Below are positions 4,945 through 36,611 of a stretch of DNA of 49,724 nt, in pieces (position 1 is the first letter of the stretch; each line of letters begins with the position of its first letter). Made by a program: the position numbers and the translations under genes. The notes under the pieces are model-generated. The model worked only from the letters and a program-made list of their open reading frames with translations. It had not been told where the DNA came from and made no database searches. This stretch comes from Candidatus Angelobacter sp. (lineage in GTDB: Bacteria > Acidobacteriota > Terriglobia > Terriglobales > Acidobacteriaceae): contig DASRDW010000014.1 of the NCBI GenBank assembly GCA_035652415.1, positions 1 through 49,724 on the forward strand, in the 5' to 3' direction.

Positions 4945-5019
4945 GGAAGTCTGAACTACACAAACCTCAAAGCTCGAAAAAGCAACCCTTACCGCGGATA
5001 ATACGGACACCGCTGATTT

Positions 5020-5077
5020 ACACGGATCAAAAGTTCTAACATTTTTGTAAATCCGTGTTATTCGTCTTCATCCGTGG
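5020..5077 (+). promoter_or_regulatory. Candidate enhancer (UAS) elements: inverted repeat ACACGGAT-N23-ATCCGTGT plus a third ATCCGTGG copy
   Basis: ACACGGAT at 5020-5027, ATCCGTGT at 5051-5058 and ATCCGTGG at 5070-5077. They sit 35-90 bp upstream of the candidate -24/-12 promoter and immediately downstream of the NtrC-family gene. Confidence 0.35.
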
Positions 5078-5109
5078 TGAGTTGCTTTTTGTGCAAAGCA
5101 ATCCCTGAT

Positions 5110-5125
5110 TGGCCATCTATTTGCT
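5110..5125 (+). promoter_or_regulatory. Candidate sigma-54 (-24/-12) promoter TGGCCA-TCTAT-TTGCT
   Basis: It matches TGGCAC-N5-TTGCW, with the invariant GG and GC at the exact spacing. It lies about 100 nt upstream of the next CDS. Confidence 0.55.
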
Positions 5126-5227
5126 TCAAGTACTGCAGCTGTCATTGCATTCAGTTGTTCTGCCTCGAATAGCAATGCAAATTAAGAGTTGGTCCTTTTG
5201 GCGATCAACCAGTCATTGGAGCTTGAA

Positions 5228-8777: not shown

Positions 8778-9601
8778 AACTGCGTTCCTGGCTTCTTCTA
8801 CCGACATGGCTGGCGATGGTTCTTCTTTTTGCTGCGCCGCTGGTCATCGTTCTGATCTATAGCATGCTAACGCGGGGAGTTTACGGTGGCGTTGAGCATC
8901 CCTGGACGGCTGAAAGCTATCAGCGGTTAATTGATCCGCTGTACTTGGTAATCCTGCTTCGATCTTTCATTATGGCCCTGGTCGCAACCGCGCTGTGCCT
9001 GGTGTTTGCCTTTCCTGCGGCACTGTTCATTTCACGAGCGCCCAGGCACAAGAATCTCTACTTGCAGCTGGTGATGCTGCCATTCTGGACGAGCTTTCTG
9101 GTCCGGACGTATGCCTGGATGTTCTTGCTCCGGGATACTGGTTTGATTAACACAGTGCTTCAGTCTCTTGGGATCATTCATGAGCCTCTACAAATGCTCT
9201 ACACGAATGGAGCCGTGCTGCTGGGTTTGGTCTATGGATATCTACCTTTCATGGTGCTCCCCATTTATGCAATCCTCGAGCGGCTTGATCCCTCGCTTAC
9301 AGAAGCCGCGGCAGACCTTGGCGCCCGCCCATTGAGGGCCGTGTTCAGCGTAGTCATTCCTTTATCCAGGCCAGGAATCATCGCTGGTTGCGTTCTTGTG
9401 TTTATCCCGTGCCTGGGAGCTTATCTCACTCCAGACCTGCTCGGCGGCGGGCGCACGGTCATGGTTGGAAATCTGGTGCAGAACCAGTTCACCACCGCCA
9501 GAGACTGGCCATTTGGCTCCGCTGCTTCAATCTTCCTCATGGTCCTGGTCACCGCTCTGGTTTGGATTTTTCTGCGACGGCAAAGCGAGCAACTGGCATG
9601 A
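8774..9601 (+). CDS. potB: ABC transporter permease (PotB-like)
   Basis: It overlaps potA by ATGA. It has six hydrophobic segments and an EAA-loop LTEAAADLGARPLRAVFSVVIPLSRPG. Confidence 0.8.
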   Translation: MKLRSWLLLPTWLAMVLLFAAPLVIVLIYSMLTRGVYGGVEHPWTAESYQRLIDPLYLVILLRSFIMALVATALCLVFAFPAALFISRAPRHKNLYLQLVMLPFWTSFLVRTYAWMFLLRDTGLINTVLQSLGIIHEPLQMLYTNGAVLLGLVYGYLPFMVLPIYAILERLDPSLTEAAADLGARPLRAVFSVVIPLSRPGIIAGCVLVFIPCLGAYLTPDLLGGGRTVMVGNLVQNQFTTARDWPFGSAASIFLMVLVTALVWIFLRRQSEQLA

Positions 9602-20137: not shown

Positions 20138-20148
20138 CAAACGCGAGT

Positions 20149-20174
20149 GGGAGGCATGGGATGCCATGCCTCCC
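20149..20174 (+). other. Perfect 11-bp-stem hairpin (GGGAGGCATGG-gatg-CCATGCCTCCC) between the second and third genes of the DUF11 locus
   Basis: Read directly from the sequence. No U-tract follows (tcatccgtaag), so it is more likely a partial terminator, attenuator or mRNA-stabilising element than a canonical intrinsic terminator. Confidence 0.5.
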
Positions 20175-20249
20175 TCATCCGTAAGTCTCTGCCCGCCTCC
20201 TCTTCGGAGACGGGCTTGAGATTTCTTCCGCTTGTCGAGGAGTGTTGCC

Positions 20250-23200: not shown

Positions 23201-25751
23201 AGTCGTGCGCGTCAGCAGTGGCGGAGTCAGCAGTGAAGCCAAACTCGAATTTGTACCAGAGCTGCGCCCGATGGTGGCAGCCGGAGTGGTTGAATATCAG
23301 CTCAATTTTGGCGGCTTGGCGCGGAGCGCGGTGCAACCCTCATTCAATGATGGTTTCGAACAACAGCTCAACCTGTTCTCCATGCAAAATGCCGACGGTT
23401 CATTCGGCTCGTCGGGCCACGCTGCCTTGTTCCTGAAGGGCAAAATACTGGGCTCAAATCTTGTGACGCTGGCCTACGATTCCGACAAGACTACGCAAAG
23501 CCAGTTGTTCCGCGATATCCAGCCGGACCAGTTCTATCCGATCTATGGCGACTCATCTGTGCGTGGCTTTGATGCTCAATCCACCAGCAAGGCTTACCTC
23601 CGCATCGATCACGGAACCAGCTACGTTGTTTATGGCGACTTCCTGACTTCAGACCCTTCCACGGCCAACAGCTTGAGCAACTACAGCCGCAGCATGACCG
23701 GCGTACAGGAACACTACAGCAACAACCGTGTGAACTTGACCGGCTTCGCGAGCTACGATTCGCTGACCCAAGTAGTTGACGAGCTGCCAGCCAACGGAAC
23801 TTCCGGGCCATTTATCCTCTCGAATCCCAACGGGGTAGAGAACAGTGAGAAGGTTGAGGTTCTCACTCGTGACCGGAACCAGCCCTCCGTGATTCTGGAC
23901 ATCCGTGAGCTCACTCGATTTGCCGACTATGAATTTGAGCCGCTGTCAGGCGAGTTGCTCCTGAAAGCGCCTCTGCCGTCGCTCGATTCGAGTCTCAATC
24001 TTCTTTCACTGCGGATTACCTATGAAGTCAATCAAGGTGGTGACCGCTTCTGGGTTGGTGGGGGCACCGGCACCTTTAAGCTGAATAACTTCTTGCAGCT
24101 TGGTGGAACCATGGTTGATGATTCCAATCCCGCGGATCCTAACAAGCTGTTTGGAGTAAATAGCAAGCTGACTCTGCCAGGCAAGACCATGTTCAATGCG
24201 GAGTTTGCCGGCACAGACCATGAAATAACTGAAGGGCTGGGTTTCGGGTATCGCCTGGAAATGCAGCATGACGGTGAAAAGTTGAAGACCAAGGCCTACG
24301 TCAGCCGCACCGACCAGGATTTCGACAATCCGACTTCCATCGTGAATAAGGGTAGAGGCGAGGATGGACTGAAGACCAGCTACACTCTGGGGCAAGGAAT
24401 GCGCTTGCTGGGCGAATATATAAGGACTGAAGACGTAACCTTGGGAGGCGTTCAGCAGGGTGGTTATGCAGGCATTGAAAAGAGTTTCCCCGGCAACATA
24501 CAGTCTCAATTTGGTTTTCGTCACGCAGAGACGACTGCGATCCCGGCAACTCCGGACCAGACCGGCACCACTCCGAACTCCATGAATACACTGGAGGCCA
24601 AACTGAGTTTCCCGGTCCCGCATTTCAATCGCCTCACCGCAACTTCCGACTATGAGCAGGATGTTTCCGATAGCAGCCAACGGGTCCTTGCCTTTGGGGC
24701 GAACTACAGGTTTTGGGAAAAGGGCAGGGTCTATTTCCGGCAGGAAGTGATCTCATCGCTGGGCGACATCTACGCGTTGAATCCGCTACAGCGCCGCAAT
24801 ACTACCCAAATTGGAGTTGAGAGTGCCTACTTCAAAGATGCCCGTGTCTTCAGCGAGTACCGCATTCATGACGACATTGACGGTCGCGATGCCGAAGCCG
24901 CCATTGGCCTGCGCAACAACTGGCACATTGCCAAAGGACTCACCGGCAACACCACAGTCGAGAGCGTGCGCACGCTGAACAACGTTATAGATGGAGTCAG
25001 TATCAATTCTCTGGCTCTTACGGGAGCGTTGGAGTACACAGCTCATGAGAATTGGAAAGCATCTGCCCGGTCGGAGTGGCGTGGCTCAACTAATGGTGAC
25101 AGCATTCTCGGAACGATCGGTTTTGCTGCCCGCTTGTCTGATGCCTGGTCATTCCTGGGCCGCAACATTATTTCAGATACCACCACGAAAGGTACAACAG
25201 AGACCAGAAACATCCAGGACCGCTTGCAGGCCGGCTTCGCATTGCGCGACTTTGAGCGCAACCGCTGGAACGCCCTGGCCATGATGGAATTGAAGAATGA
25301 CAATGACAATTCGCAGCCGACAAACCTGATAAACACTCGCGTCGCCATTTTCTCAACTACTGCCAACTATCAGGTGGCTGCGCCGTTCACACTTTCGGCC
25401 CGTTATGCGGCGGAGTGGAACCTCGATAACACCAGCGGACTTTCAACCTCGGCGACAACGCAGCTGGTCGGTATTCGCGAAACCTGGGATGTGGGCAAGC
25501 GCTGGGATGTGGGCGCAACCTTCAGCACCATGTTCAGCGGCGCTGCCAACTCGCGCCAGTATGAAATGGGGCCGGAGTTCGGATATCGCGTGATATCCAA
25601 CATGTGGGTTTCCACCGGCTACAACTTCACCGGCTTCCGTAATGATGATCTCGCTGGCGAGAACGTGACACGCCGCGGAGCGTTTGTGCGCATGCGCTTC
25701 AAGTTCGATGAAAACATCTTTAGCCCGCGCAAGGAGGCCCAGCAGCAATGA
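20250..25751 (+). CDS. Giant outer-membrane protein: N-terminal DUF11/SdrD-B/Big-like domains fused to a C-terminal ~830-aa beta-barrel-like region
   Basis: The GTG at 20250 is preceded by GAGGAG; the track's TTG start is at 20232. The signal is SRARSTSVLWMLLLVFLSTASRG. DUF11 motifs include FTLNVTNSGSVDAAGVAV and VDYTVEIKNLLTTPVTNVQVTDNLPPGF. An SdrD-B-like motif is VFQDCNGNHMQDAGEPGVPGVRIYLEDG. From about 23240 onward there are at least 20 alternating amphipathic strand pairs (LSLRITYEV, GFGYRLEMQH, VLAFGANYRFW, LALTGALEYTA...). The region ends in the OMP-type terminus GAFVRMRFKF. Confidence 0.75.
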   Translation: MSRARSTSVLWMLLLVFLSTASRGSVPAGSSIDNQASASYTASSGTSTTADSNVVHVITQAGAAALTITKSSSQTSAKPGDHPAFTLNVTNSGSVDAAGVAVTIDGAPVTRVVISDAIPNNTRFTAIVNAGGATPLYHILGTGAQAYVSTAPTDLSTVDSVAFVLTSLAAGNSASFSFSVAVDSNASGTIHNVSQVAFNNGVDTIAQSNAVDIPVSGPPPSIAYYLDSNFARTIQATAMGSPLWIQIDAAACNLDPSTVETKPIILKSLLTGDTETFLATETGANTGLFRVLPSVPTRDGASNPVASGNKIMEVLRNDQVIASLTGCGASTVTVAILIDPAGTIFDSHTNATIAAASVTLIDVSGNGNGGHPNQPATVLQFDGVTPAPSTVVTSGNGQFQFPQVAPSTYRISVTPPPSFSFPSTVPPAQLPPGRNIDPSASYNGTFTVSASSATAIFDVPLDAAATTPLFVQKTAAQPQAEVGTFVDYTVEIKNLLTTPVTNVQVTDNLPPGFVYQSRSARLNAAPIADPPSKGPVLIFNIGTLVPNADVNLTYRVLIGPGANIGVAVNHASAASGTLRSNTSSAAVVVTGGAFSDQGFIVGKVFQDCNGNHMQDAGEPGVPGVRIYLEDGTFAITDGQGKYSIYGVASRTHIVKVDTQSLPQGASLLAISSRNAGDGGSRFVDLRFGEMQKADFAIGSCTPEMAQEIAARQKNAGEDNEVGKAVKATFNVQEIQKDPTQLKAMPASGMVDPAIVSQGSANAIAVNSLKKEVGSPAPASIAATVPAPATAPATASAAELANLSNDLGFVDLHDNDVLPFTQTNVRIKGTAGNTFHLLVNGKEASTKQVGTKTVVKDKQLEVWEFIGINLEPGRNTVQALQFDPWGNNRGAELITIIAPSKLGKLKITGRAKTYPADGKTLVKIAINLTDAANVPVTVRTPITLETTAGSWIVKDLNPNEPGTQVFIEGGKAEFDLQPPIQPGPAVVRVSSGGVSSEAKLEFVPELRPMVAAGVVEYQLNFGGLARSAVQPSFNDGFEQQLNLFSMQNADGSFGSSGHAALFLKGKILGSNLVTLAYDSDKTTQSQLFRDIQPDQFYPIYGDSSVRGFDAQSTSKAYLRIDHGTSYVVYGDFLTSDPSTANSLSNYSRSMTGVQEHYSNNRVNLTGFASYDSLTQVVDELPANGTSGPFILSNPNGVENSEKVEVLTRDRNQPSVILDIRELTRFADYEFEPLSGELLLKAPLPSLDSSLNLLSLRITYEVNQGGDRFWVGGGTGTFKLNNFLQLGGTMVDDSNPADPNKLFGVNSKLTLPGKTMFNAEFAGTDHEITEGLGFGYRLEMQHDGEKLKTKAYVSRTDQDFDNPTSIVNKGRGEDGLKTSYTLGQGMRLLGEYIRTEDVTLGGVQQGGYAGIEKSFPGNIQSQFGFRHAETTAIPATPDQTGTTPNSMNTLEAKLSFPVPHFNRLTATSDYEQDVSDSSQRVLAFGANYRFWEKGRVYFRQEVISSLGDIYALNPLQRRNTTQIGVESAYFKDARVFSEYRIHDDIDGRDAEAAIGLRNNWHIAKGLTGNTTVESVRTLNNVIDGVSINSLALTGALEYTAHENWKASARSEWRGSTNGDSILGTIGFAARLSDAWSFLGRNIISDTTTKGTTETRNIQDRLQAGFALRDFERNRWNALAMMELKNDNDNSQPTNLINTRVAIFSTTANYQVAAPFTLSARYAAEWNLDNTSGLSTSATTQLVGIRETWDVGKRWDVGATFSTMFSGAANSRQYEMGPEFGYRVISNMWVSTGYNFTGFRNDDLAGENVTRRGAFVRMRFKFDENIFSPRKEAQQQ

Positions 25752-28700
25752 GCCTCATGCAACAAAAGAGGGTCTGCCGCGCGGCGTGGAAGACGCTCTG
25801 TCTTCTGCGGACGGCGGTGTTGTCTCCTCGATTTGTGTGGGGATGCGCAGTCTTCTTGCTTCTGCTGGCCAGCATCGTTGACGCCAGGGCGGCGGATGTG
25901 CGCGACCAGGTCTACGCTGTAGGTGTCGACGTTCGAAATATCTACTTGGTGAATGCGAACGGGACGGTCACCAGCCAATTCAGCAACTACTCGGCCACTG
26001 CATCGGCAGCTGCAGCACAGCGAGCCAGCGATGGCGTGATCTACTTCATCACTCAGGTCGCAAACGGTACGGTCTTTACTTGGAACCCTGCAACACCCGC
26101 GACAGCGCCCGTGCAGCTCGGCACCACCGGAGCCTCAGTTCCATATATTCCTCGCCTGGCATTCTCGGCGAGCGGCGTGCTATACGGCGTGGACACGAAC
26201 ACCGCCAACCTTTACATCATTGATCAATCTACGGGCGCGGCAACCGTGGTAGGAGCGCTTTCAGGTGTGCCGGTGAACCTGGGAGGCGACATTGGGTTTG
26301 GACCGGATGGGACCTTATATATGGTCGCCGGCGTTACGATTTATACCGTCCCGCTGACCGGCGGAGCCGTTACCAGTCTGGGGACGATCAGCGGAATTTC
26401 CAGAAATGCGACTGCGATTGTCGGCATAACCTTCAATGCCAGTGGTCAGATGCTCGTTGCGGATGACCAAACGCCCGCGAAGCTCTATACAGTCGCTCTA
26501 CCTTCACGTGTTGCCACGGCGCTTTCCGGAACCATGGCCACATCGCAGGGCGATCTGGCCAGCGCCCCCCGCGTGCAGATCAGCGGTACTGTTTTTGAAG
26601 ACGTCAATTACGGAGGCGGCGCCGGGCGAAGTCTCGCTTCTTCTGCGGGTGTGGGTGTTGCCAACGCACGCGTGGAGCTTTATGACGCCTCCGGGAATTT
26701 TGTCGCTTTCACGACCACGAATGCGTCCGGAAGTTACACCCTGACCGGTGCGCCGGGACTGACTTATACCATCCGTGTGGTCAATTCATCCGTTGACTCA
26801 ACCCGTCCCGGATCGGTTGCAGCGCTCATTGGCGTGCAGACTTTTCGCACGAGTGGGTTGACAGGTACGGTCGGCACAGCGGACACAAACCGTGTCGGCG
26901 GCGAGGATCCCACCAAGATAGATGCAGGTAATGGCAGCACAACTTTGGCTGCTCTGACCACATCGACTACTACCGCTGAATCAATCACCAGCGTTTCGCT
27001 CGGTGCAAGCAGTGTTACCGGAATCGATTTTGGATTCAACTTCGACACTATTGTAAGCACGCGCGATTCTGGGCAAGGGACTCTGCGTCAATTCATTACC
27101 AACAGCAACACGCTGACGAATGCGGGACTCAGCCAATCAGGCCAAACCGCCGGCGTGGAAACCAGCATCTTTATGATCTCCAATGGCGCTGCGGTGCCCG
27201 GGTTGCGCGCTGGGCTCACGAATCAGTTGACCGGCAGCGTGGCGCAAATCATTCCCGCGACCCAGTTGCCCGCAATCACTGATAGCAACACATCAATCGA
27301 CGGAACCACGCAAACGAGCAACCTGAACGATACAAACTCAGGGACTCTGGGCGCCGGCGGCACGGTTGGAGTGGATTCGCTGACCTTGTCAACAGTGAAC
27401 AGGCCGGACGTACAGATCAGTACGGCCCAGGGAACGATTGGGCTGGGAATCCAGATTCAGGGCAGCAATACCCGGCTGCGCGGCCTTGCTATTTTTGGTT
27501 TCGGGACCGCAGCCAATACCAACGGCAGCGCCAACATTGAAATTGAGACCGGCGGCAGCAACGCCAGCCTCAAGCAATTAATCGTGGGAACCAGCGCTAC
27601 CGCTTTCAGCGATCCCGGAGCGACCGTGCGCTCACGCGGTGACAATATTCGCTCCAACGGCGGCGATAGCGGAACGGTGCAAAACAGCCTGATCGGATTC
27701 TCACAAGGGAAAGGCATTGCTCTGGAAGCGACATCGACCGGCTGGACCATCCAAAATAATGAGGTGCGCGGCAACGGGATTAACAATCCAGGATTCGGCG
27801 GGATGAACATCGGTACCGGTTCCACTGCCACCGTCAGTGGCAATTTGTTTATTGCTTCGCAGGGGCCGGGAATCGATACGTCGCAAAGTTCCGGCGGCTA
27901 TACGCTCACTGACAACACGGTCACCGGCAACGGTACGGGCAGCGGCGCGACACTCGTGGATGCCGGAATTCGCATCTTTGGCAGCGGGAACACGGTGAGT
28001 AAGAACGTGATCTCCAGCAACGTGGGCGCTGGAATACTGGTGACGTTGGGCTCGCCGACTACCACCATCACGCGAAACTCTATTTCCCTGAACGGGACCG
28101 CAGGCGGCACGCCGACCCATGAAGTCGGCATCGACTTGCTCTCCGCGAGCGACAATCAATTGTTAGGCACTTCTCCGTTTGTTACGCTGAATTCTGCTGG
28201 AACACATACGGGCGGCAATGGCTTGTTGAATTATCCGATTCTACAAACCGCAACCATCAGCTCAGGCATACTCACGCTTACTGGATTCGCTCGACCGGGC
28301 TCAGTCATCGAACTTTTCATCGCCAATCCCGATCCTTCAGGTTTTGGACAGGGTCAGACCTTCGTGACGACCCTGACTGAAGGCTCAGCGTCTGACCTGG
28401 ACAACACGACTGGAACTTACGGCCCAGCTGCGATCAACGGAATCAGCCAGGGAACCGATACCACGAACCGTTTCAAATTCGTCATCACAGTGCCGTCAGG
28501 CGTGGGAACAGGCACCGTGCTGACGGCAACGGCTACGCTGGGCGGCGCAACATCAGAGTTCAGCGGCAATGTCACCGTGTCAGTCTCAACCGTCGTCAAC
28601 GGAACCGTCTACCTCGATACCAATCATAATGGCGCATTGGATAGCGGTGAGACGTGGACCAGCGGCGCTCCCGTTTTCGTGAACCTGGTCTCGAGTGGGG

Positions 28701-29971
28701 CCGTCGTTCAATCGGTTACAGTACCTGCCGGCGCAGGCACATTTTCATTTACCAATGTGGCGGCCGGAACGTACACAATCGTGCTGACGAACTCAGCTGC
28801 GTCAACTGTGGCGGCTGCGCCCACTGGATTTGCTTTTGTCACGCCCGGCACCGGGCAGTTGCAACTCACAGTTTCCAATGGCGTTCTCAACAATGAGAAT
28901 TTCGGGCTCTTTAAAGGCAGTATGGTGACCGGAAGGATTTTTAAAGACAACGGCGCAGGTGGCGGCACGGCCAACAACGGAATCCTTGATGGCGCCGAGG
29001 CAGGGCTCTCCGGCGTATCCATAAAAGCCACTGACGGCGGCAGCACCGTGTTTGATACAGAGGTGTCCGGCAGCGACGGTTCTTACTCGCTTTTCATCAC
29101 AGCCGGCGCGACTACTGTGGCGATCGTCAAAACCAATCCAGCAAACTACATTGCGACCGGCGCGTCGGTTGGCACCACGGTAGGCGGCTACAATCGCGCC
29201 ACAGACACTGTTACCTTCACCAAGGCGACTGAAGGCTTTTTTACCGGCGTGAATTTCGGCGTGGTTCCTGTGAACACTTTCCAGGCTGACGGCGCGCAGC
29301 AGGCGCTTCCAAACACTACGCTCTTCTACGCGCATATTTTCAGTCCAGGAACAGCAGGGCAGGTCACCTTTACCATTGCGTCAACAACATCCCCGAGCAA
29401 TGTTCTGTTCAGCCACATTCTTTATCAGGACACCGCTTGCAGCGGCGTTATCACTGCCAGTGATCCAGTGATTTCTGGTCCGGTTACCACCGTTGCGGGA
29501 ACGAATCTATGTATCCTGATGAAGGTTACCGTGCCGAGCGGTGCACCCTTGAATTCGAGCGATGCAGCCGTGTTGACCGCCAGCTTCTCTTATACCAATG
29601 CCAACCCGGCACTCAATGCCACATATACAGTGAAAGACCTGACCACAGTGGGTACGCCAACTACTGCAGGTTTGCGTCTGGAGAAGGCTGTTGATAAGGC
29701 AACTGCCCTGCCGGGCGCGAACCTCACTTACACGCTGACATTCACCAATGACAGCAGCGGCGCCATCTCCAACATCGTCATCAATGATGCGACACCTGCA
29801 TACACAAATTTTGTCAGCGCCGCCTGCGGTGCTCCGTTGCCAGCCAGCCTGACAGCGTGCTCCGTTACTGCGCCCGCAGCTGGCCAGACGGGAAACATTC
29901 AGTGGACATTCACGGGTACCCTCAATCCCAGCCAGACCGGGACGGTCTCGTTTGTCGTCAAAATCCAGTAA
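25748..29971 (+). CDS. Secreted 1407-aa multidomain protein: propeller-like N-terminus, SdrD-B/CnaB-like domains, parallel beta-helix repeats, C-terminal DUF11
   Basis: Its ATG overlaps the upstream stop (ATGA). The N-terminus has Val/Gly/Thr-rich repeated blades (VIYFIT, VLYGVD, LYMVAG, QMLVAD). SdrD-B-like motifs are ISGTVFEDVNYGGGAG, VNGTVYLDTNHNGALDSGE and VTGRIFKDNGAGGGTANNGILDG. Beta-helix repeats include NNEVRGNGINNPG, NTVTGNGTGSG, NVISSNVGAGI and NSISLNGTAGG. The terminal DUF11 is LTYTLTFTNDSSGAISNIVINDATPAYT...VSFVVKIQ. Confidence 0.75.
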   Translation: MSLMQQKRVCRAAWKTLCLLRTAVLSPRFVWGCAVFLLLLASIVDARAADVRDQVYAVGVDVRNIYLVNANGTVTSQFSNYSATASAAAAQRASDGVIYFITQVANGTVFTWNPATPATAPVQLGTTGASVPYIPRLAFSASGVLYGVDTNTANLYIIDQSTGAATVVGALSGVPVNLGGDIGFGPDGTLYMVAGVTIYTVPLTGGAVTSLGTISGISRNATAIVGITFNASGQMLVADDQTPAKLYTVALPSRVATALSGTMATSQGDLASAPRVQISGTVFEDVNYGGGAGRSLASSAGVGVANARVELYDASGNFVAFTTTNASGSYTLTGAPGLTYTIRVVNSSVDSTRPGSVAALIGVQTFRTSGLTGTVGTADTNRVGGEDPTKIDAGNGSTTLAALTTSTTTAESITSVSLGASSVTGIDFGFNFDTIVSTRDSGQGTLRQFITNSNTLTNAGLSQSGQTAGVETSIFMISNGAAVPGLRAGLTNQLTGSVAQIIPATQLPAITDSNTSIDGTTQTSNLNDTNSGTLGAGGTVGVDSLTLSTVNRPDVQISTAQGTIGLGIQIQGSNTRLRGLAIFGFGTAANTNGSANIEIETGGSNASLKQLIVGTSATAFSDPGATVRSRGDNIRSNGGDSGTVQNSLIGFSQGKGIALEATSTGWTIQNNEVRGNGINNPGFGGMNIGTGSTATVSGNLFIASQGPGIDTSQSSGGYTLTDNTVTGNGTGSGATLVDAGIRIFGSGNTVSKNVISSNVGAGILVTLGSPTTTITRNSISLNGTAGGTPTHEVGIDLLSASDNQLLGTSPFVTLNSAGTHTGGNGLLNYPILQTATISSGILTLTGFARPGSVIELFIANPDPSGFGQGQTFVTTLTEGSASDLDNTTGTYGPAAINGISQGTDTTNRFKFVITVPSGVGTGTVLTATATLGGATSEFSGNVTVSVSTVVNGTVYLDTNHNGALDSGETWTSGAPVFVNLVSSGAVVQSVTVPAGAGTFSFTNVAAGTYTIVLTNSAASTVAAAPTGFAFVTPGTGQLQLTVSNGVLNNENFGLFKGSMVTGRIFKDNGAGGGTANNGILDGAEAGLSGVSIKATDGGSTVFDTEVSGSDGSYSLFITAGATTVAIVKTNPANYIATGASVGTTVGGYNRATDTVTFTKATEGFFTGVNFGVVPVNTFQADGAQQALPNTTLFYAHIFSPGTAGQVTFTIASTTSPSNVLFSHILYQDTACSGVITASDPVISGPVTTVAGTNLCILMKVTVPSGAPLNSSDAAVLTASFSYTNANPALNATYTVKDLTTVGTPTTAGLRLEKAVDKATALPGANLTYTLTFTNDSSGAISNIVINDATPAYTNFVSAACGAPLPASLTACSVTAPAAGQTGNIQWTFTGTLNPSQTGTVSFVVKIQ

Positions 29972-30676
29972 GGTGACCAACCTTTTATTTTAGAACGCTG
30001 TTGATTAAACAGCTCTGTGCGCTTGCGCTTTCATAGCTGAAGCCAGCGGTTTTGATTGGCGCAGAGAGTCAGTTGCCTTGCGATGAACTTACGCATGGAG
30101 TACAGGTTGACAAGGACTGTTTCATTTCCGCAGCGCTAGTCTTCAGTCAGCTTTGCGCGTGCATTTCAAACGTATCTATCCTGATGCTTTTTGATAAGAC
30201 GAATGCCTCTTCCAGTTTGGATCTTGTTCTCGCGCAATTGAACCTGATTTCAAAATAGGGAAAACTTTCGGCCTACCGTCGAGGGAATAGAGGTACAAGT
30301 TATAACAGCTTATTTTTTGTGAAGTTTTTGGAGCCATAATCCTTGACTGGCCAAAGGACTTCGGCTAATTTTTATCCCCGAGTGAGATCCGTTTCGTTCT
30401 CATTTCGGGAAGACTCCTTCCACGGACTTGTGATGTTGTAGGCAGTGGAGAGTAGTGGGAACCACCACAACTTTCAACTTGCCATAACGCCGGTGGACAG
30501 CTGCTTTGTCCATTGAGCTGAAAATCATCCACAACACTGTTTGCATCTACCGCAATCAGTTCGTAGCTCTTTTTATATTTATCCAGTGATTTGGGTGAAA
30601 GAGATTGATGTGAAAAAAAGGCGCTTTTCCGCCAGCTTTTCCGCCATTCATCTTGAACGCCGCGTTTCTGATCACT

Positions 30677-30692
30677 CGGACATGCAATTGCT
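30677..30692 (+). promoter_or_regulatory. Weak candidate sigma-54 promoter CGGACA-TGCAA-TTGCT
   Basis: GG and GC are at the correct spacing and the -12 TTGCT is perfect, but the -24 half is poor apart from GG. It lies about 48 nt upstream of the peptide gene ATG. Confidence 0.3.
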
Positions 30693-30739
30693 GCTTTCGT
30701 TGTACACACGTACAGCGATTGCTGAAAGAGAGAACTGCA

Positions 30740-30994
30740 ATGAAGAAGAATAAGATGTTGATGCTGGGAAGCGTGGGCGCTATGCTCCTGAGCGGTGCAT
30801 TGTTGATTACGCCCGCCAGCGCCACCACAAGCTCCTTTTGCACTACTTGTTCCAAACTAATCAATGGAACAGCTCTTGAGGTGTCGAACTGCAAAACATC
30901 CACCACGAATGTGTGCTTTTGTCCGCTGACGCCTCCTCTGTTCTCTAATAACTGCGTTCCGCCTGCTGGAACTGCAGACAAAGCGTTGAAATAG
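30740..30994 (+). CDS. Small secreted six-cysteine peptide precursor (84 aa; about 56-aa mature part)
   Basis: The signal is MKKNKMLMLGSVGAMLLSGALLITPASA. The mature part is TTSSFCTTCSKLINGTALEVSNCKTSTTNVCFCPLTPPLFSNNCVPPAGTADKALK. The longer 30653 ORF start lacks a signal peptide and looks less plausible. Confidence 0.5.
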   Translation: MKKNKMLMLGSVGAMLLSGALLITPASATTSSFCTTCSKLINGTALEVSNCKTSTTNVCFCPLTPPLFSNNCVPPAGTADKALK

Positions 30995-31006
30995 AGCAAC
31001 CCATTT

Positions 31007-31546
31007 ATGCGCAGCCCACTTTTGTTTGCGATCCTGGGACTTCTCGCGGTGGAGGCATTTTTACTTCCACGCACCAGTAAGGACTTCCAGATCCTGCAAA
31101 AAGCACGCATGGAGATGATGCCGGAGAGTGGCCGTCCTTTGTTGCTTGGCCCTTTTGTCGCATACGACAGGGATGGCCATCCTCTGGCGCTTACTACCGA
31201 CGAAACCAGGTGGATTCTGCCGATCGTCATACATTCCAACCGGGCGAATTCTGATCTTAATTATCTGGAAAGACTGCGAAAAGCGTTCCCCAGCCGCGCC
31301 CTTGCGCTTATAGGAGTATGTGACCAGAGCCCATGCAGCGCCAATGACCAAAACGTCCGAAGCGCCAGCAGTGATTTCCCAATTCTTGTTTATGGCTCGT
31401 ATGCTCCGCTGAAAGACATTCTGCGCTTTGACGATCACAATGAAGTTTTGCTGACAAACCAGTTCTGGGGAGTGGAAAAATCGCTGCCTCGTGCTTCTTC
31501 TGCGGAAGAGATGGCTGAGAGCTTAAAGAAAGTGACAAGGCCATGA
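31007..31546 (+). CDS. Membrane-anchored or secreted TlpA-like thioredoxin-fold protein lacking the CxxC motif
   Basis: The N-terminal hydrophobic segment is MRSPLLFAILGLLAVEAFLL. The TlpA-like layout is FVAYDRDGHPLALTTDETRWILPIVIHSNRANSDLNYLERLRKAF...ALIGVCD...EVLLTNQFWGV, with SNRANS where WCxxC is expected. Assignment is by pattern only. Confidence 0.45.
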   Translation: MRSPLLFAILGLLAVEAFLLPRTSKDFQILQKARMEMMPESGRPLLLGPFVAYDRDGHPLALTTDETRWILPIVIHSNRANSDLNYLERLRKAFPSRALALIGVCDQSPCSANDQNVRSASSDFPILVYGSYAPLKDILRFDDHNEVLLTNQFWGVEKSLPRASSAEEMAESLKKVTRP

Positions 31547-32046
31547 ATCGGCTCAAGGGCCTCGAATTCTGGTGTCTCTTCTTGCTTATGGTGAATATGG
31601 CCACGGCTGGCACGGATTTCTATTTTCGGCATTTGACCGCCGCGTTGGATCCTTATCCTCAGGGGCACAAAGTTGCCGACGTGCCTGGCATCACAGTCAG
31701 CGACAGCCCTGAGGAATCCGGAAAGGCCTGCCATTTGGTGCGATACGCCAGCACCAATTGCGGCTACTGCGCGCCAAAGTATTCACAGCCCTGGAATGAA
31801 CTGGAAAAGGAACTCACGGACAAAGGTTGTGATTCGATCATCGTGAGCCCATATTCAAGCGATCTGCCGCAAGAAAATGGAACCCCGGAGCAAAAAATGG
31901 CCGGCGTCTCCGCACAATTCATCAGAAGCACCGGTTTCAACTCTACGCCCACCACCTTGTTGCTTGATCGCGATTGGAAAGTTGTGTGGGCCCACAAAGG
32001 CGTAGTAGAGCCCCGCGATTCGCAGCAAGCAAAAAATAGCTTTTAG
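31543..32046 (+). CDS. TlpA/ResA-like thiol-disulfide oxidoreductase (CGYC active site)
   Basis: It overlaps the upstream gene by ATGA. It has an N-terminal hydrophobic segment. The thioredoxin-fold layout is CHLVRYASTNCGYCAPKYSQPWNELEKEL...IIVSPY...TPTTLLLDRDWKVVWAHKG. Confidence 0.65.
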   Translation: MNRLKGLEFWCLFLLMVNMATAGTDFYFRHLTAALDPYPQGHKVADVPGITVSDSPEESGKACHLVRYASTNCGYCAPKYSQPWNELEKELTDKGCDSIIVSPYSSDLPQENGTPEQKMAGVSAQFIRSTGFNSTPTTLLLDRDWKVVWAHKGVVEPRDSQQAKNSF

Positions 32047-32070
32047 CATCGATTCGTGCTGTCAGGCTGC

Positions 32071-32433
32071 TTATGCCAGCGGCGTTGTAGAGCAGCAATG
32101 GAGCAGCTTGCTCTCCAGCGGCACCCAAAAGCTTTCGTACTCGCGGCTTCTTTGCGTGGCCACCAGCAGCATCATGGTGCCTTCATCTTCCGGCACATCA
32201 TCAATGCGGTAAACCACAGGAAACGCAAATTGATCAATCAGGCCAGTGGGACCGTAGTGGATCACGGTGACAGTGTCATCGTGCGCAACAAGGGAGTAGT
32301 AGGTGTCAGATTCTGCCTGTGACTGCAGGACCTGTTGCAAAATGCTTATGCTGACCAAATAACAGAGTTCCATAGTGGCGGAAATTTCCTTCCTGGCTAA
32401 AAGCCCCCGAAAGTCCACATCTAAACTGGGCAC
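32071..32433 (-). CDS. Hypothetical protein (no recognisable domain; start uncertain, alternative ATG at 32373)
   Basis: Open frame only. It is convergent with the thioredoxin-like gene. I recognise no motifs. Confidence 0.3.
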   Translation of the reverse strand: MPSLDVDFRGLLARKEISATMELCYLVSISILQQVLQSQAESDTYYSLVAHDDTVTVIHYGPTGLIDQFAFPVVYRIDDVPEDEGTMMLLVATQRSREYESFWVPLESKLLHCCSTTPLA

Positions 32434-33015
32434 CTCTTGAGATAGTGCTCCGTATAACTCATCCGTTTCGGAGCCTACTCACTTCTCTTTACTAAGGGTT
32501 TTACGGCCAGGATATTACGCTTTCATTGGAGTTTGATTAAAAGAATTAATTTTTAGGTAATAAGGTGGCATCTTTGCTTGCTTTTAGAAATCAATGATTT
32601 AAAGGTCTATGGGCCAAGACGGATTAAGACGCTTTAGGCTCTAAAATCTGTAGGACGACTAGAAAGGGGAGGGTCTTTCCGACCCTTATACGGTCTTCAC
32701 AGAATTCTATTGCGATATTGCGGCTATTCCGTTCTTAAAAATCCCAATCAATGCGCGGCTTGCGGAATGCGATTGCTCTCTCTCCAAAACTGGTGACAAA
32801 CCAGATCACGTGGGATGTGCTTATTCAGGGATGAGGTGCAGAGTGTACTGAAAGAGATGTTCATTTTCGAACGCAGCATTTCGTTTCTGCACACTATTGT
32901 GCTGGTTCTGTAAAACATAAGTAAAACACGGTGTCAGCAGGCAGAAGATGCTAACTCGCACATTTTTTTAGCGTCTAACAGAGTATAGAGCAATAAAACA
33001 GCAGAGCTTTTTTGC

Positions 33016-33031
33016 TGGCAACGTATTTGCA
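33016..33031 (+). promoter_or_regulatory. Candidate sigma-54 (-24/-12) promoter TGGCAA-CGTAT-TTGCA
   Basis: It is a near-consensus match to TGGCAC-N5-TTGCW with exact GG/GC spacing. It lies in an AT-rich non-coding region about 245 nt upstream of the next CDS. Confidence 0.55.
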
Positions 33032-33279
33032 TTTAATCGCTGCTGACGATGCTGTATAGCGGCAGGAGAGTTCAAAGGGGTTAGAGGGAGTGTCCGCGCC
33101 TATGGTTTGGCGGCCCAGGCGAGAACAGTCCCTGGAAAGCGGTGCGTTTACGCGCATTAGCTCTATAACCCCCAGCGCTGAATTGTAGGCCATCGGCGAA
33201 AAAAAGCAATTGCTGATTGGCTTAATGTGGGCCGCCCCAGCTGGTCCCGACGCTAATCGGGAAGACAAGAGGAGCGGTG

Positions 33280-33681
33280 ATGAAGTTTGCGCTATTTTCC
33301 AAGATCATAATTGCATCGCTGGCATTAATGCTCGCCGGCAGCGCGTTCGCAATCAATGATTCCCATAAGGTTAATTTTAAAATCTCAGAACCCACGCAGG
33401 TGAATGGCACGCAGTTGCCTGCAGGCCAATATCAAGCGCGTTGGGAAGGCTCTGGCCCTGCGGTCCAGGTAAGCATCATTCAAAACATGAAAGTGGTGGC
33501 CACAGTGCCGGGCCAACTGGTTGACAGAGACCATGCAGCACTATACAACGCAGTTGAAACCAAAAATAATTCCAACGGTCAACCTGAGCTAACGGCGCTG
33601 CTTTTTTCTGGCAAGAAATATACGTTGCAATTGGGCTCAGAATCAGCCAATGCGCAAGGTAAGACGGAGTCAACCGACTAA
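33280..33681 (+). CDS. Small secreted protein of unknown function (133 aa)
   Basis: The ATG at 33280 follows GAGGAG. The signal peptide is MKFALFSKIIIASLALMLAGSAFA. The mature part is beta-rich (QLPAGQYQARWEGSGPAVQVSII...). Confidence 0.7.
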   Translation: MKFALFSKIIIASLALMLAGSAFAINDSHKVNFKISEPTQVNGTQLPAGQYQARWEGSGPAVQVSIIQNMKVVATVPGQLVDRDHAALYNAVETKNNSNGQPELTALLFSGKKYTLQLGSESANAQGKTESTD

Positions 33682-33741: not shown

Positions 33742-33914
33742 CCGTTCCAAGTATGCAAGAACTTTCACGGCCAGAGGAGACTGAGTTTTTGCATGGGATG
33801 CCGGACTCTCTACAGGTCACTGGTAGTGCAATATTCATGCAGGACTGCAGTAGCGACTTACCATTCATGTATACTTTTTGAGAACTGGCCGGAACATTAG
33901 TGGAGGAGCTTGAT

Positions 33915-34319
33915 ATGCAATTTGATTTGCGGCAATCCCTTCGTATGGCGATTGCCACTGCGTTGGTTGCACTCTTCATTGTTCCCACGGAGGCGCTCGC
34001 GCAGAGCCACGTGGTCAGCCCCGCCGACCTGCAACAAAAAGCAGTAGCAGCGTCGCAGGCGAGACAGCACAACCTGGAAACGGTACAGCAGTTTCTCTCT
34101 ACCCCAACTGCGGAAAAAGCCATGCAATCGGCCAAGATGGACCCGCAGCAGGTAAAGACGGCTGTTTCCACGCTTAATGACCAAGAATTGGCCCAACTTG
34201 CCGCGCGTGCTGATAAGGCGCAGGCCGACTTTGCCGCCGGTAATCTCAGTGAACGTGATTTGGTTCTGATCATTCTGGGTGTTGCGGTGCTGATCCTGAT
34301 TATTGTGGCAGTCCGCTGA
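33915..34319 (+). CDS. Small exported protein with an N-terminal signal and a C-terminal TM anchor (reminiscent of the PA2779 family)
   Basis: The ATG at 33915 follows GGAGGAG. The signal is MQFDLRQSLRMAIATALVALFIVPTEALA. The middle is Gln/Ala-rich and helical. The C-terminal anchor is LVLIILGVAVLILIIVAVR. The family name comes from memory of gene neighbourhoods and is unverified. Confidence 0.55.
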   Translation: MQFDLRQSLRMAIATALVALFIVPTEALAQSHVVSPADLQQKAVAASQARQHNLETVQQFLSTPTAEKAMQSAKMDPQQVKTAVSTLNDQELAQLAARADKAQADFAAGNLSERDLVLIILGVAVLILIIVAVR

Positions 34320-34328
34320 CGAAATTTC

Positions 34329-34901
34329 ATGGTTCGAAACATGCCGCAGAGACTTAAAGCATTACCGCGTCTCTGCGGCTTTGCTTTGGCAGCAACTCTT
34401 CTTGCTGTAAGCGTTTTTGCTGCGCCCCCCGGAGTCTGGCTTGACGTGCCATTTATCAAGCAAGAGAAAGATGGCTGCGGTCCGGCCAGCATTGCCATGG
34501 TGATGCAGTACTGGCTTAAGCAGAAAGCGCGTCCTGTTGACGCAAGCGCTGACGTATCTGTGATCCAGCACGCTCTTGTTTCCGGGAAAGAACACGGAAC
34601 CCGCGCTTCTGCCATGGAGCAATACTTCCAACAGCACGGCTTTCAGACTTTCGCCTTCGCAGGCAAATGGGATGACCTGAAACAACATCTGGATAAAGGA
34701 CGTCCGCTGATCGTGGCGCTCAAACCGTCTGCACTGGAAAAATCTTTGCATTATGTGGTGGTGGTTGGTCTGGATCCTGAACAAGATGTTGTGCTCGTGA
34801 ATGATGCTGCCCAGCGTAAACTGCTTAAAGAAGAACGAACAAGTTTTGAAAGCCAGTGGAACGCCGTGGGGCGATGGACATTGCTGGCGCTGCCAAAGTA
34901 A
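34329..34901 (+). CDS. Secreted C39-like (papain-fold) cysteine peptidase
   Basis: It has a signal peptide (LAATLLAVSVFAAPPG). The catalytic Gln/Cys context is VPFIKQEKDGCGPASIAMVMQYW. The His/Asp context is LHYVVVVGLDPEQDVVLVNDAAQ. Confidence 0.7.
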   Translation: MVRNMPQRLKALPRLCGFALAATLLAVSVFAAPPGVWLDVPFIKQEKDGCGPASIAMVMQYWLKQKARPVDASADVSVIQHALVSGKEHGTRASAMEQYFQQHGFQTFAFAGKWDDLKQHLDKGRPLIVALKPSALEKSLHYVVVVGLDPEQDVVLVNDAAQRKLLKEERTSFESQWNAVGRWTLLALPK

Positions 34902-34934
34902 TCCAATTGAGAGGCCTTAATTAAGTCGCGACGA

Positions 34935-36611
34935 TTGATTCTCAATCTAGTGGTCATCTCTTTAGCAACTCTCTGTTGCTTGCTCGTTTACGCACAGACA
35001 GACGAATCTGCTACAGCTAAACAACTCTTTGAGCAGGAGCGCTGGCAGGAACTTGCACATCTGCTTGCGTCCACACCGCGCACATCCGCCGATCTAAATT
35101 ATTACTACGGCGTAGCCCTTGGCCATCTGGAGCGTTGGCAGGAAGCCGAAAATGCTCTGCAGGCAGGCGCCAAACTGGTCCCACGCGATAAACGATTTCC
35201 TATCGAGCTGGCAGGAGTGGCTTTTAAACAGAGTCATTTCAGTCAAGCCACGCACGACTTGCACCGTGCGCTTCGCCTCGATCCGAAAGATTCTTATTCT
35301 AATGACTTTCTGGCCACAATTTACTTTCTTCAAGGAAATGTTGAAGCCGCGTTGAAGTATTGGAACCGGGTAGGCAAACCAAAGATAGCCAGCGTGCGCA
35401 ATGATCCGCCGTTGCACGTGCGTCCTGCATTGCTGGACCACGCCTTTGCTTTTGCGCCGGAAAGCGTTCTTACTCTCGATCAGTTTTTGGCCAGTCAAAA
35501 GCGAGTGGACATGCTGGAGATTTTTCCCAGCTATCGCGTTGAGCTTGATGCGCGGGGTGACGGCAATTTCGATACTGTTTTCCGCGCACGGGAGCTCAAC
35601 GGCTTCGGCAACACAAAGATCGAAGCTCTCGTGCGATTGTTTGGCGGCATTCTCTTTCAGGAGATTACGCCCGAGTTTTACAACGTGCATGGCTCAGCCG
35701 TGAATATTCGCACTTTCTTGCGTCTCGATGTGGACAAGCGTCGGGCTTATGCATGGTTTTCCTCGCCACTGGAAGGGAATCCAAAATGGCGGGTTCGCTT
35801 TGGCACAGACCTGCGAAATGAGAACTGGACGGTGCAGAGTTCCTTTGCCGGCCCAAGCATTTTTCTGGGAGCGCTGAATTTGCGTCGTGAATCAATTGCG
35901 GTAGAGATCAAGCGTCTAGTGGGCGCCCGCTGGAACTGGTCAACTGGAGTAGAAGTTTCGCATCGCGATTTTCGCAACGTAAATCCAGGCACGGCATTGA
36001 CAGCGCAATTATTGGCGCATGGCTACCAGATCAAAGAGACATCTGCGCTCAACTATGAGCTTTGGCGGTCGCCAGAACGGCGCGTTACCGTAACCGGCGG
36101 CGTCAACTCACAGACAGGACGCCTCTGGTCGGCACCGGGACAATCTTTTGAAAAACTTCAAGCATCGCTTGATGGTCGATGGTTTCCAAAGCCCGCCGGT
36201 GATGATTTAGAGACCATTGTGCGCCTGCGCGGTGGAAAAACATTTGGAGAACTTCCATTTGATGAACTCTTTATGCTTGCCGTGCAGGAGGACAACGATC
36301 TCTGGATGCACGGGCATGAAGGAACTCGCCACGGGCAAAAGGGCAGCGCGCCGCTGGGCCGTGATTACTCTCTCGCTAACTGGGAAACCGATAAAAATGT
36401 TTTTTCCAATGGCTATTTAACAGTGCGGCTGGGGCCTCTACTTGACGTTGGCAAGTCTTGGGACACGTCAGAGGCCTTGGGATCACATAAGTGGCTGTTC
36501 GATACCGGCGGTCAAGCCAAGCTGCGCGTTTTGGGCGTAGGCGTGGTGCTTTCCTACGGTAAGGACTTAAGATCTGGCAACAATGCATTTTTTGCAACCG
36601 TGAAACCCTAA
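34935..36611 (+). CDS. TPR + POTRA-like + beta-barrel outer-membrane protein (distantly Omp85/surface-antigen-like)
   Basis: TTG start with signal-like ILNLVVISLATLCCLLVYAQT. TPR-type repeats include YYYGVALGHLERWQEAENALQAG and FLATIYFLQGNVEAALKYWNRVGKP. A POTRA-like segment is LTLDQFLASQKRVDMLEIFPSYRVELDARGDGNFDTVFRARE. The C-terminal half has alternating-hydrophobic strands. The assignment is structural inference only. Confidence 0.5.
   Translation: MILNLVVISLATLCCLLVYAQTDESATAKQLFEQERWQELAHLLASTPRTSADLNYYYGVALGHLERWQEAENALQAGAKLVPRDKRFPIELAGVAFKQSHFSQATHDLHRALRLDPKDSYSNDFLATIYFLQGNVEAALKYWNRVGKPKIASVRNDPPLHVRPALLDHAFAFAPESVLTLDQFLASQKRVDMLEIFPSYRVELDARGDGNFDTVFRARELNGFGNTKIEALVRLFGGILFQEITPEFYNVHGSAVNIRTFLRLDVDKRRAYAWFSSPLEGNPKWRVRFGTDLRNENWTVQSSFAGPSIFLGALNLRRESIAVEIKRLVGARWNWSTGVEVSHRDFRNVNPGTALTAQLLAHGYQIKETSALNYELWRSPERRVTVTGGVNSQTGRLWSAPGQSFEKLQASLDGRWFPKPAGDDLETIVRLRGGKTFGELPFDELFMLAVQEDNDLWMHGHEGTRHGQKGSAPLGRDYSLANWETDKNVFSNGYLTVRLGPLLDVGKSWDTSEALGSHKWLFDTGGQAKLRVLGVGVVLSYGKDLRSGNNAFFATVKP

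Follow-up and report, generated by a model that had tools for sequence, protein, structure and literature searches.

A gene trio of Candidatus Angelobacter for a predicted secreted six-cysteine peptide and two predicted thioredoxin-fold membrane proteins

Does a short gene for a six-cysteine peptide, lying next to genes for two putative thioredoxin-fold proteins, belong with them in one functional unit, and if so, what might that unit do? This question is raised by a locus in a 49,724-nucleotide (nt) stretch of DNA from Candidatus Angelobacter sp. (contig DASRDW010000014.1; 'the window' below means the whole of that stretch), where three genes on one strand, together 1.3 kb long, encode an 84-residue peptide precursor and two larger proteins that we call ORF2 and ORF3. 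The coordinates, taken from the listing of open reading frames (ORFs) and from direct reading (Table 1), bear out the layout given in an initial annotation made from the sequence alone: the stop codon of the peptide gene is separated from the ORF2 start by 12 nt, ORF2 and ORF3 overlap by the 4 nt of an ATGA, and no transporter or modification enzyme adjoins the operon. Comparison of related loci indicates that the three genes make up a self-contained unit of long standing, from which one part has occasionally been lost.

The precursor reads MKKNKMLMLGSVGAMLLSGALLITPASA (signal) followed by TTSSFCTTCSKLINGTALEVSNCKTSTTNVCFCPLTPPLFSNNCVPPAGTADKALK (mature), with predicted cleavage after A28. An n-region (MKKNK) is followed by a 19-residue hydrophobic core that leads into TPASA, and the mature part contains exactly six cysteines (C34, C37, C51, C59, C61 and C72); the Sec signal, 56-residue mature part and six cysteines named in the initial annotation all agree with our direct reading. 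In a search of 5.8 billion proteins only six relatives were found, 69–82% identical and with the six cysteines invariant throughout; further copies, missed by the gene caller, were found by reading the contigs of these relatives. The peptides occur as one to three tandem paralogues per locus, which we label types A, B and C, and L009 (the numbers L001–L021 denote the related loci or contigs compared with the window) has in addition a type D; the copy in the window is of type C. In L009 an extra, more divergent peptide paralogue (CTSKGC..., Cx4C) lies downstream of ORF3 at a distance of 0.7 kb (9201–9443, +).

When 22 distinct peptides are aligned, the invariant elements are C-T-x-C, C, C-x-C-P-L and N-x-C. 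Signal positions L17, S18, L21 and P25 are likewise invariant, and the AxA cleavage site is kept in all paralogue types. With 22 relatives in which no cysteine is lost, the peptide ORF, whose homologues and cysteine pattern had been singled out for checking, is conserved. Nei–Gojobori ratios of nonsynonymous to synonymous substitution (dN/dS) have medians of 0.27 for type-C orthologues and 0.16 for type A, with values of 0.17–0.41 recorded for the type-C precursor gene; these medians point to purifying selection on the peptide genes. Between paralogue types, identity is 60–63% in the signal region and 31–34% in the mature region, or 20–24% there when the cysteines are left out. The spacing between the first two cysteines is 2, 4 or 5 residues depending on the lineage, and CxC is the sole fixed spacing. 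Across the family, the count of Lys plus Arg falls from 2.8 ahead of the hydrophobic core to 0.9 behind it, a pattern that predicts an N-in orientation and export. On the strength of these sequence comparisons, we conclude that the peptide is the product of a real, constrained gene.

Neither Pfam, NCBIfam nor the PDB holds a match to the peptide at a curated or significant level, and profile searches of solved structures with the peptide gave no significant match. Against the Pfam family DUF3551, which covers small secreted cysteine proteins, the window peptide scores 14.4 bits with a cut-off of 26.5 bits, and 8 of the 22 relatives match below threshold (best E 0.005). The AT-rich spacer upstream of the intact gene holds the remains of a second peptide gene: tblastn with type A and B peptides matches positions 30442–30552, the translation there (...AVESSGNHHNFQLAITPVDSCFVH*AENHPQHCLHLP) resembles intact AVDSNGNTVTSTCHIAPVDSCFCPLSGRIIQNNCLHLP, and a DNA alignment with intact type-A genes locates the frameshifts. 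The minus-strand ORF that overlaps this pseudogene (30365–30709, 114 residues) is probably not a gene; neither it nor another minus-strand ORF at 32071–32433 has a relative in any related locus.

The neighbourhood of three genes, also proposed for checking in the initial annotation, is kept well beyond the window. Thirteen close loci have enough upstream sequence to be informative (the window, L002–L010, L012, L013 and L017), and 12 of them carry one to three peptide genes directly upstream of the ORF2–ORF3 pair. The same arrangement recurs in far more divergent loci. Specifically, in L018 and L019, with an ORF2 that is ~20% identical, a signal-peptide protein with the same cysteine framework (mature part DAGTCTRQGTCQGIVGPGVVVSSGCAWDQIDGVCYCPLPNSFNNYCPNYSN) lies upstream of the pair, and in L021 (ORF2 ~16–18% identical) a peptide ...NTYRGCYSGTACSQHGQGGVCNFINDGDTGYCACTVNGSNIGTNDCKAPPAP precedes an ORF2-like gene that carries AYCDGTAC and, after it, an ORF3-like gene that carries CEYC and T-P. 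L020 does not extend far enough to show whether a peptide gene is present upstream. The 4-nt overlap of ORF2 and ORF3 is retained in every locus with both genes called, and the other neighbouring genes differ completely from locus to locus, which implies that the three genes travel as a unit. Because this unit recurs at ~16–20% ORF2 identity, the linkage is likely to be old and functional.

Close relatives were found only in Candidatus Angelobacter or Terriglobales metagenome bins and in soil metagenomes. Locus searches with narrower alignments returned only three genomes, all Candidatus Angelobacter, together with three JGI metagenome contigs, and a cluster look-up assigned one distant ORF2 relative to Candidatus Angelobacter as well. 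Candidatus Angelobacter genomes from one study site have a GC content of 55% (PMC9723581); that of the window is 54%.

ORF3 matches Pfam Redoxin (PF08534) with 28.5 bits (gathering cut-off 26.6, E 1.5e-6), and the CGYC assigned in the initial annotation to the second of the two thioredoxin-fold proteins is present as C73–C76. A TlpA/CcmG-type domain of ~110 residues follows an N-terminal membrane helix. The AlphaFold model has a predicted local distance difference test (pLDDT) score of 66.6, a moderate value, and Foldseek places the DsbE-like structure 3gl3 and related entries at the top (E 5e-6), with DsbE/CcmG-like, ResA and Etrx structures following to 1e-3; sequence and profile searches of solved structures gave no significant match for ORF3. 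The motif is mostly CGYC among 28 relatives, some of which have CGFC or CRYC, and it reads CPSC in L014 and, as noted, CEYC in L021.

CGYC combined with a Thr ahead of the cis-Pro makes up the site of the isomerases DsbC and ScsC; both this Thr and a Tyr in the dipeptide are hallmarks of isomerases, whereas in a typical CcmG the dipeptide contains a Pro and the cis-Pro is preceded by a small hydrophobic residue (PMC5909903). Judged by these motifs, the active site of ORF3 (CGYC/Thr-cisPro) is of the isomerase-like DsbC/ScsC type. The CcmG fingerprint GVxGxPETF is absent from the ORF3 alignment and no ccm/ccs or ccdA genes occur in any locus examined; lacking both the fingerprint and a cytochrome c maturation context, ORF3 is CcmG-like in fold without being a CcmG. 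Nor is it a DsbC, because the scaffold differs: DsbC and ScsC share with ORF3 the dipeptide and the Thr before the cis-Pro (PMC5909903), but they are soluble proteins with a DsbA-type domain that has a helical insert and with an N-terminal oligomerisation domain, in contrast to the TlpA/CcmG-like, membrane-anchored ORF3. DsbC is reported to be the preferred enzyme for folding small multi-disulfide proteins (PMC3668227). Outside its active site, ORF3 has two further cysteines, C63 and C96, which are both present in most sequences and both replaced in L013 (about 5700–5800) and L021 (5543–6112). This covariation suggests a structural disulfide, as expected in an oxidising compartment. Near the N-terminal end of the membrane helix lies another cysteine, C11 (in FWC; window 31573–31575, L018 2436–2438, L021 5567–5569), which never varies among close relatives and which two of four distant ones share.

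Neither Pfam nor NCBIfam contains a match for ORF2, and no relevant Pfam match was obtained among 41 diverse members, made up of ORF2 and the 40 relatives aligned with it out of 73 found by a profile search of 1.84 billion representative proteins. A profile search of solved structures with ORF2 gave no significant match. One AlphaFold model, with a mean pLDDT of 70.8, has the strand–helix order of a thioredoxin, and the other four have values of 48–54; with the former, Foldseek retrieves StoA, ResA and TlpA at E ~1e-5 (template modelling scores 0.43–0.59) and, over a range of 1e-5 to 1e-3, StoA, ResA, TlpA-like, Sco and GPx structures. A thioredoxin fold is thus predicted for ORF2 by one model of moderate confidence. 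The initial annotation had described two membrane-anchored thioredoxin-fold proteins that are paralogues of each other. The fold is supported by Pfam for ORF3 and by that single AlphaFold model for ORF2, and the paralogy is unproven, because the two proteins have no detectable similarity either in sequence (BLASTP E=10) or between profiles (hhalign probability 0.15% and 0.8%).

If ORF2 is a thioredoxin-like protein, it has lost the usual active site. In the hhalign comparison, a 5-residue gap in ORF2 falls opposite TNCGY of ORF3, and this register, although non-significant, together with the strand order of the model puts HSNRANS where the CxxC would be and N145 in the place of the cis-Pro. 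The earlier placement of SNRANS where a CxxC would be therefore agrees with the model and with the position of the gap, but not with a significant profile alignment. The further claim that ORF2 is redox-inactive is not established, because it overlooked a near-invariant cysteine pair: C105-x4-C110 is invariant in 21 close relatives, and at least 90% of the 41 sequences in the wider alignment, of which the distant ones are ~16–26% identical, retain it; it recurs in L021 and in L014 (GICDDAAC). Since this motif ends a strand that runs parallel to the first strand, it should, given the predicted fold, adjoin the position of the old active site. In L017, the ORF2 homologue (96–818, +) matches only to about residue 65 and then diverges, and the gene is apparently disrupted or rearranged.

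Table 1. Features of the three-gene locus, in window positions (aa, amino acids)
Feature	Position	Strand	Basis or remarks
Peptide precursor gene, type C, 84 aa	30740–30994	+	ORF; 22 relatives with all six Cys, T35, P62, L63 and N70 invariant
Predicted Sec/signal peptidase I signal	30740–30823	+	MKKNK, hydrophobic core, TPASA with A at −3 and −1; read from sequence
Mature 56-aa region	30824–30991	+	Framework C-T-x-C ... C ... C-x-C-P-L ... N-x-C (alignments)
ORF2, 179 aa, N-terminal membrane helix and predicted degenerate thioredoxin-like domain, undescribed family	31007–31546	+	AlphaFold/Foldseek
ORF2 S77–S82 (SNRANS), at the predicted place of the missing CxxC loop	31235–31252	+	After strand 69–75, start of helix 77–93 (model)
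ORF2 C105-D-x-x-x-C110 (GVCDxxxC)	31319–31336	+	Near-invariant Cys pair, end of second parallel strand
ORF3, 167 aa, membrane-anchored Redoxin/CcmG/TlpA-like thiol:disulfide oxidoreductase	31543–32046	+	Pfam PF08534
ORF3 active site CGYC, C73–C76	31759–31770	+	Both Cys invariant in 28 relatives
ORF3 T135–P136, predicted Thr-cisPro loop	31945–31950	+	S134, T135 and P136 invariant; directly before strand 137–142 (model)
Decayed second peptide gene (type-A pseudogene)	30346–30555, approximate	+	In-frame stops, several 1-nt deletions, lost Cys codons, degraded 5′ half

How might these parts work together? We put the chances at about even that the locus produces a Sec-exported three-disulfide peptide, with ORF3 as a dedicated isomerase-type enzyme of thiol–disulfide exchange and ORF2 as its non-canonical partner subunit. 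The peptide would be made with a cleavable Sec signal, whose features are visible in the precursor, and would then be exported and cut; its mature part, 45–56 residues long across the family, would fold with three disulfides between the six invariant cysteines. Variable spacing of the first cysteine pair alongside a fixed CxC fits such a disulfide framework better than it fits a metal site. ORF3, with the fold and active site described above, would exchange thiols and disulfides on the peptide, most likely shuffling or proofreading them. ORF2, presumed to be coupled translationally to ORF3 through the ATGA, would probably be its partner in the membrane, and conserved polar residues within the membrane helices (E16 in ORF2; N18, T21 and D25 in ORF3) together with this coupling suggest that the two proteins pair there. 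Redox relay, substrate holder and immunity-like partner are candidate roles for ORF2.

The biological purpose is the weakest step of this proposal. The peptide family may be diversifying, with tandem copies, a signal better conserved than the mature part, gene loss, pseudogenes and variable AT-rich surroundings, and this pattern of tandem paralogues, conserved signals, diverged mature regions and pseudogene turnover in such surroundings hints at a function in interaction or competition, for example as a bacteriocin-like effector. A RES–Xre toxin–antitoxin pair next to the unit in L007 and a radical SAM peptide cluster in L001 point in the same direction. A broader reading, which we regard as doubtful, is that soil Acidobacteriota possess an unrecognised class of Sec-exported three-disulfide mini-proteins that, like defensins or conotoxins, keep their signal and cysteine framework while their loops diverge, and that act as antimicrobial or signalling effectors, each locus supplying a two-subunit membrane folding machine that consists of a CcmG-fold isomerase and a thioredoxin-like protein in which a C-x4-C loop has taken over from CxxC as the active site.

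Several observations weigh against a dedicated folding system for exported effector peptides. By inspection, the peptides are not strongly cationic or amphipathic, unlike classic antimicrobials; no locus contains a redox partner of the CcdA/DsbD or DsbB-like kind; and both structure models are of moderate confidence only. A Sec signal in a two-membrane bacterium delivers to the periplasm only, and no route across the outer membrane is encoded nearby, which leaves release of the peptide unexplained. The linkage itself has exceptions. L010, where an 85-nt gap separates the pair from a preceding sigma-54 response regulator, has ORF2 and ORF3 without a peptide gene (L009, which is syntenic with it, has one upstream), L014 has the pair with no peptide within its 262 upstream nt, and in L001 and L015 three and two peptide genes, respectively, are followed by a DUF1801 gene and no pair. 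Redox genes without a peptide, which the initial annotation held would refute the association, are thus found in a minority of loci (L010 and L014) and not in most of them. Such cases, along with the fact that all loci are metagenomic and the rest of each genome is unseen, are what might be expected if ORF2 and ORF3 were a redox pair of general use in the envelope of these bacteria, with the peptide genes simply tending to lie nearby. We find this explanation highly improbable, since the genes keep the same order, short gaps and a single strand at ~16–20% ORF2 identity while all other neighbours differ, and synteny without function would not survive such divergence.

Membrane topology adds to the difficulties of the proposed folding system and gives rise to another explanation. 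We took the most hydrophobic 19-residue segment near each N-terminus and counted Lys and Arg in the 15 residues on either side, which is a crude rule. In ORF2 the counts are 1.1–1.3 before the helix and 3.3–4.9 after it, with more after than before in 85–95% of members, so that by the positive-inside rule the domain is predicted to face the cytoplasm; the holdase role suggested in the initial annotation is accordingly doubtful, at least in the periplasm. ORF3 is ambiguous, with 2.0 before and 1.9 after in close relatives and 1.75 before and 3.25 after in four distant ones. Were both domains cytoplasmic, they could not act on the exported peptide. In this explanation ORF2, and possibly ORF3, faces the cytoplasm, and the pair would hold the Cys-rich precursor in a reduced, exportable state on the inner face of the membrane or serve in immunity or self-protection against the peptide. 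The charge pattern of ORF2 is the opposite of that in ResA and CcmG controls, with counts of 4.5 before and 1.0 after (N-in, domain outside), distant ORF3 relatives have Arg-rich segments after the helix, and ORF2 directly follows the structural gene or genes, where immunity genes of bacteriocin loci are usually found. We nevertheless consider a cytoplasmic pair quite unlikely: the charge count is crude and does not decide the case of ORF3 itself, the covarying C63 and C96 suggest a structural disulfide that would be unexpected in the cytoplasm and so favour the periplasm for the ORF3 domain, and all characterised membrane-anchored proteins of the TlpA/CcmG/ResA type are extracytoplasmic (PMC5909903). 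In a further explanation, the peptides are periplasmic thiol-based binders of copper, zinc or a similar metal, or redox buffers, with ORF3 keeping their cysteines reduced and the C-x4-C of ORF2 taking part in metal or electron hand-over. TlpA, for one, reportedly reduces ScoI and CoxB prior to copper loading. Characterised membrane proteins of the TlpA/CcmG fold are mostly reductants fed by CcdA or DsbD (PMC5909903), metal sites could arise from six invariant cysteines within ~50 residues, some of them arranged as CxxC and CxC, and the peptides show a faint, sub-threshold match to a zinc ribbon. However, a first cysteine pair that alternates among CxxC, Cx4C and Cx5C between lineages is seldom seen in a metal knuckle but is common in disulfide frameworks, the peptides have no conserved His or Met, copper or other metal resistance genes occur in none of the six larger genomic contexts, and CGYC/TcP is of the more oxidising, isomerase type rather than the Pro-dipeptide type of CcmG and TlpA (PMC5909903), all of which leaves metal binding with a small chance of being right.

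A peptide encoded with its own disulfide enzymes is known in kind; the components here are new. The comparison with the sublancin locus drawn in the initial annotation is fair as an analogy: glycocin clusters (sunA-sunT-bdbA-sunS-bdbB for sublancin, palA-palS-palT-paldbA-paldbB for pallidocin) encode a thioredoxin-like BdbA and a DsbB-like BdbB beside the precursor, so that a small disulfide-bonded secreted peptide is again accompanied by its own thiol-disulfide oxidoreductases, two per cluster (PMC6405829). The differences are considerable. A glycocin leader is cut and the product exported by a SunT-type ABC transporter, with glycosylation by SunS, whereas the unit in the window has a Sec signal; BdbB is a polytopic, DsbB-like, quinone-linked oxidase, whereas ORF2 is a single-helix thioredoxin-like protein without CxxC; and the glycocin hosts are Firmicutes with one membrane, in contrast to the Acidobacteriota, with no sequence relationship between the systems. 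No SunT-type peptidase/ABC exporter, SunS glycosyltransferase or DsbB-like BdbB was found around the operon or in related loci. The unit shares with glycocin clusters only the dedicated thioredoxin-fold enzyme and lacks their other defining features.

Closer in design to ORF3 is HP0377 of Helicobacter pylori, a CcmG-family protein that acts as both reductase and isomerase and that combines a membrane-anchored CcmG/TlpA fold with a DsbC-like CSYC/Thr-cisPro site (PMC5909903), on the same scaffold as the CGYC/Thr-cisPro of ORF3. HP0377, however, serves cytochrome c maturation and is recycled by CcdA, whereas ORF3 is found with a six-cysteine peptide and ORF2 and has no cytochrome biogenesis or CcdA gene nearby. 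The TlpA-ScoI-CoxB and ScsB-ScsD systems reportedly likewise have a membrane-anchored TlpA-like thioredoxin that acts on the cysteines of a specific envelope client, but with copper proteins as clients, active sites of the reductase type, no degenerate thioredoxin-like partner and no tandem peptide family. On the peptide side, the pattern recalls conotoxins and defensins, in which the signal and the cysteine framework are conserved, the loops between cysteines diverge among paralogues and tandem genes turn over, as in the present family. There is no homology, the cysteine order (Cx2-5C, C, CxC, C) is not that of a CSalpha-beta or knottin fold, and selection on the mature region is purifying rather than diversifying within each paralogue type. 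A six-cysteine precursor of the SCIFF/ranthipeptide kind, which would lack a signal peptide and adjoin a radical SAM maturase, was also considered and rejected: a signal peptide is present, neither the window nor any of 12 related loci has a radical SAM gene next to the operon, and there is no NCBIfam match.

The peptide and ORF2 families are undescribed and match no curated family. Acidobacteria of the Candidatus Angelobacter type are abundant in soil and noted for their biosynthetic gene clusters (PMC9723581). Should the peptides prove to be active effectors, they would offer disulfide-stabilised scaffolds that are encoded by genes and easy to express. To our knowledge, the small gene-encoded products of these bacteria are unexplored, and we know of almost no characterised peptides in the phylum. 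The ORF2 family, which appears to have lost both canonical active-site elements and to have kept C-x4-C, and which has a DsbC-like partner, offers a compact system for studying new redox and non-redox roles of thioredoxin folds. The whole 1.3-kb unit is directly testable in a heterologous host.

The unit lies in AT-rich surroundings. GC content is 0.517 in the operon, 0.453 in the 768-nt upstream spacer, 0.480 in the 1.2 kb downstream and 0.541 in the whole window, so the region is indeed more AT-rich than its neighbours, as had been judged by eye, but mostly because of its non-coding flanks. A GG-N10-GC site (CGGACATGCAATTGCT, 30677–30692, +), 47 nt upstream of the peptide start, was examined as a sigma-54 promoter; this idea was dropped because no comparable site precedes the peptide genes in other loci. 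No sigma-70 promoter-like sites were found in 29900–32600, the only terminator-like hairpins in that interval lie at the end of the upstream giant gene, and a search of 29900–33300 for RNA elements returned none apart from one chance-level microRNA match.

Farther out, three consecutive giant predicted surface proteins (888, 1839 and 1407 residues) are encoded at 17471–29971 (+), and this array ends directly upstream of the AT-rich spacer; the 888- and 1407-residue proteins, which are the two that were scanned, contain DUF11, SdrD B-like, beta-helix and CarboxypepD_reg domains. What looks like an operon, 1.9 kb downstream of the peptide unit (33900–36611, +), encodes a PA2779-family protein (33900–34319), a C39-like cysteine peptidase of the PA2778 family (34329–34901) and a TPR protein (34935–36611). 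The C39-like peptidase was considered as a part of the peptide unit, but the PA2778/PA2779-family genes (33900–34901) are found in no related locus and so are treated as a separate, probably unrelated system.

The related loci have their own distinctive neighbours. In L009 and L010 (3829–7398) the unit is preceded by a hybrid histidine kinase and a sigma-54 response regulator, and L010 has lost its upstream peptide gene. Beside the peptide array of L001 there is a B12-binding radical SAM gene with two short Cys-rich ORFs that share a leader-like KLxLxQETLRNLT (2081–2239, 2604–2780 and 4177–6084, all on the minus strand). This looks like a separate modified-peptide (RiPP) cluster, in which the radical SAM gene has precursor-like ORFs of its own. 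Directly downstream of the unit in one Candidatus Angelobacter lineage (L007, 9132–10078, −; L008, 1480–2387, −) lies a pair of genes for a RES toxin and an Xre-family antitoxin.

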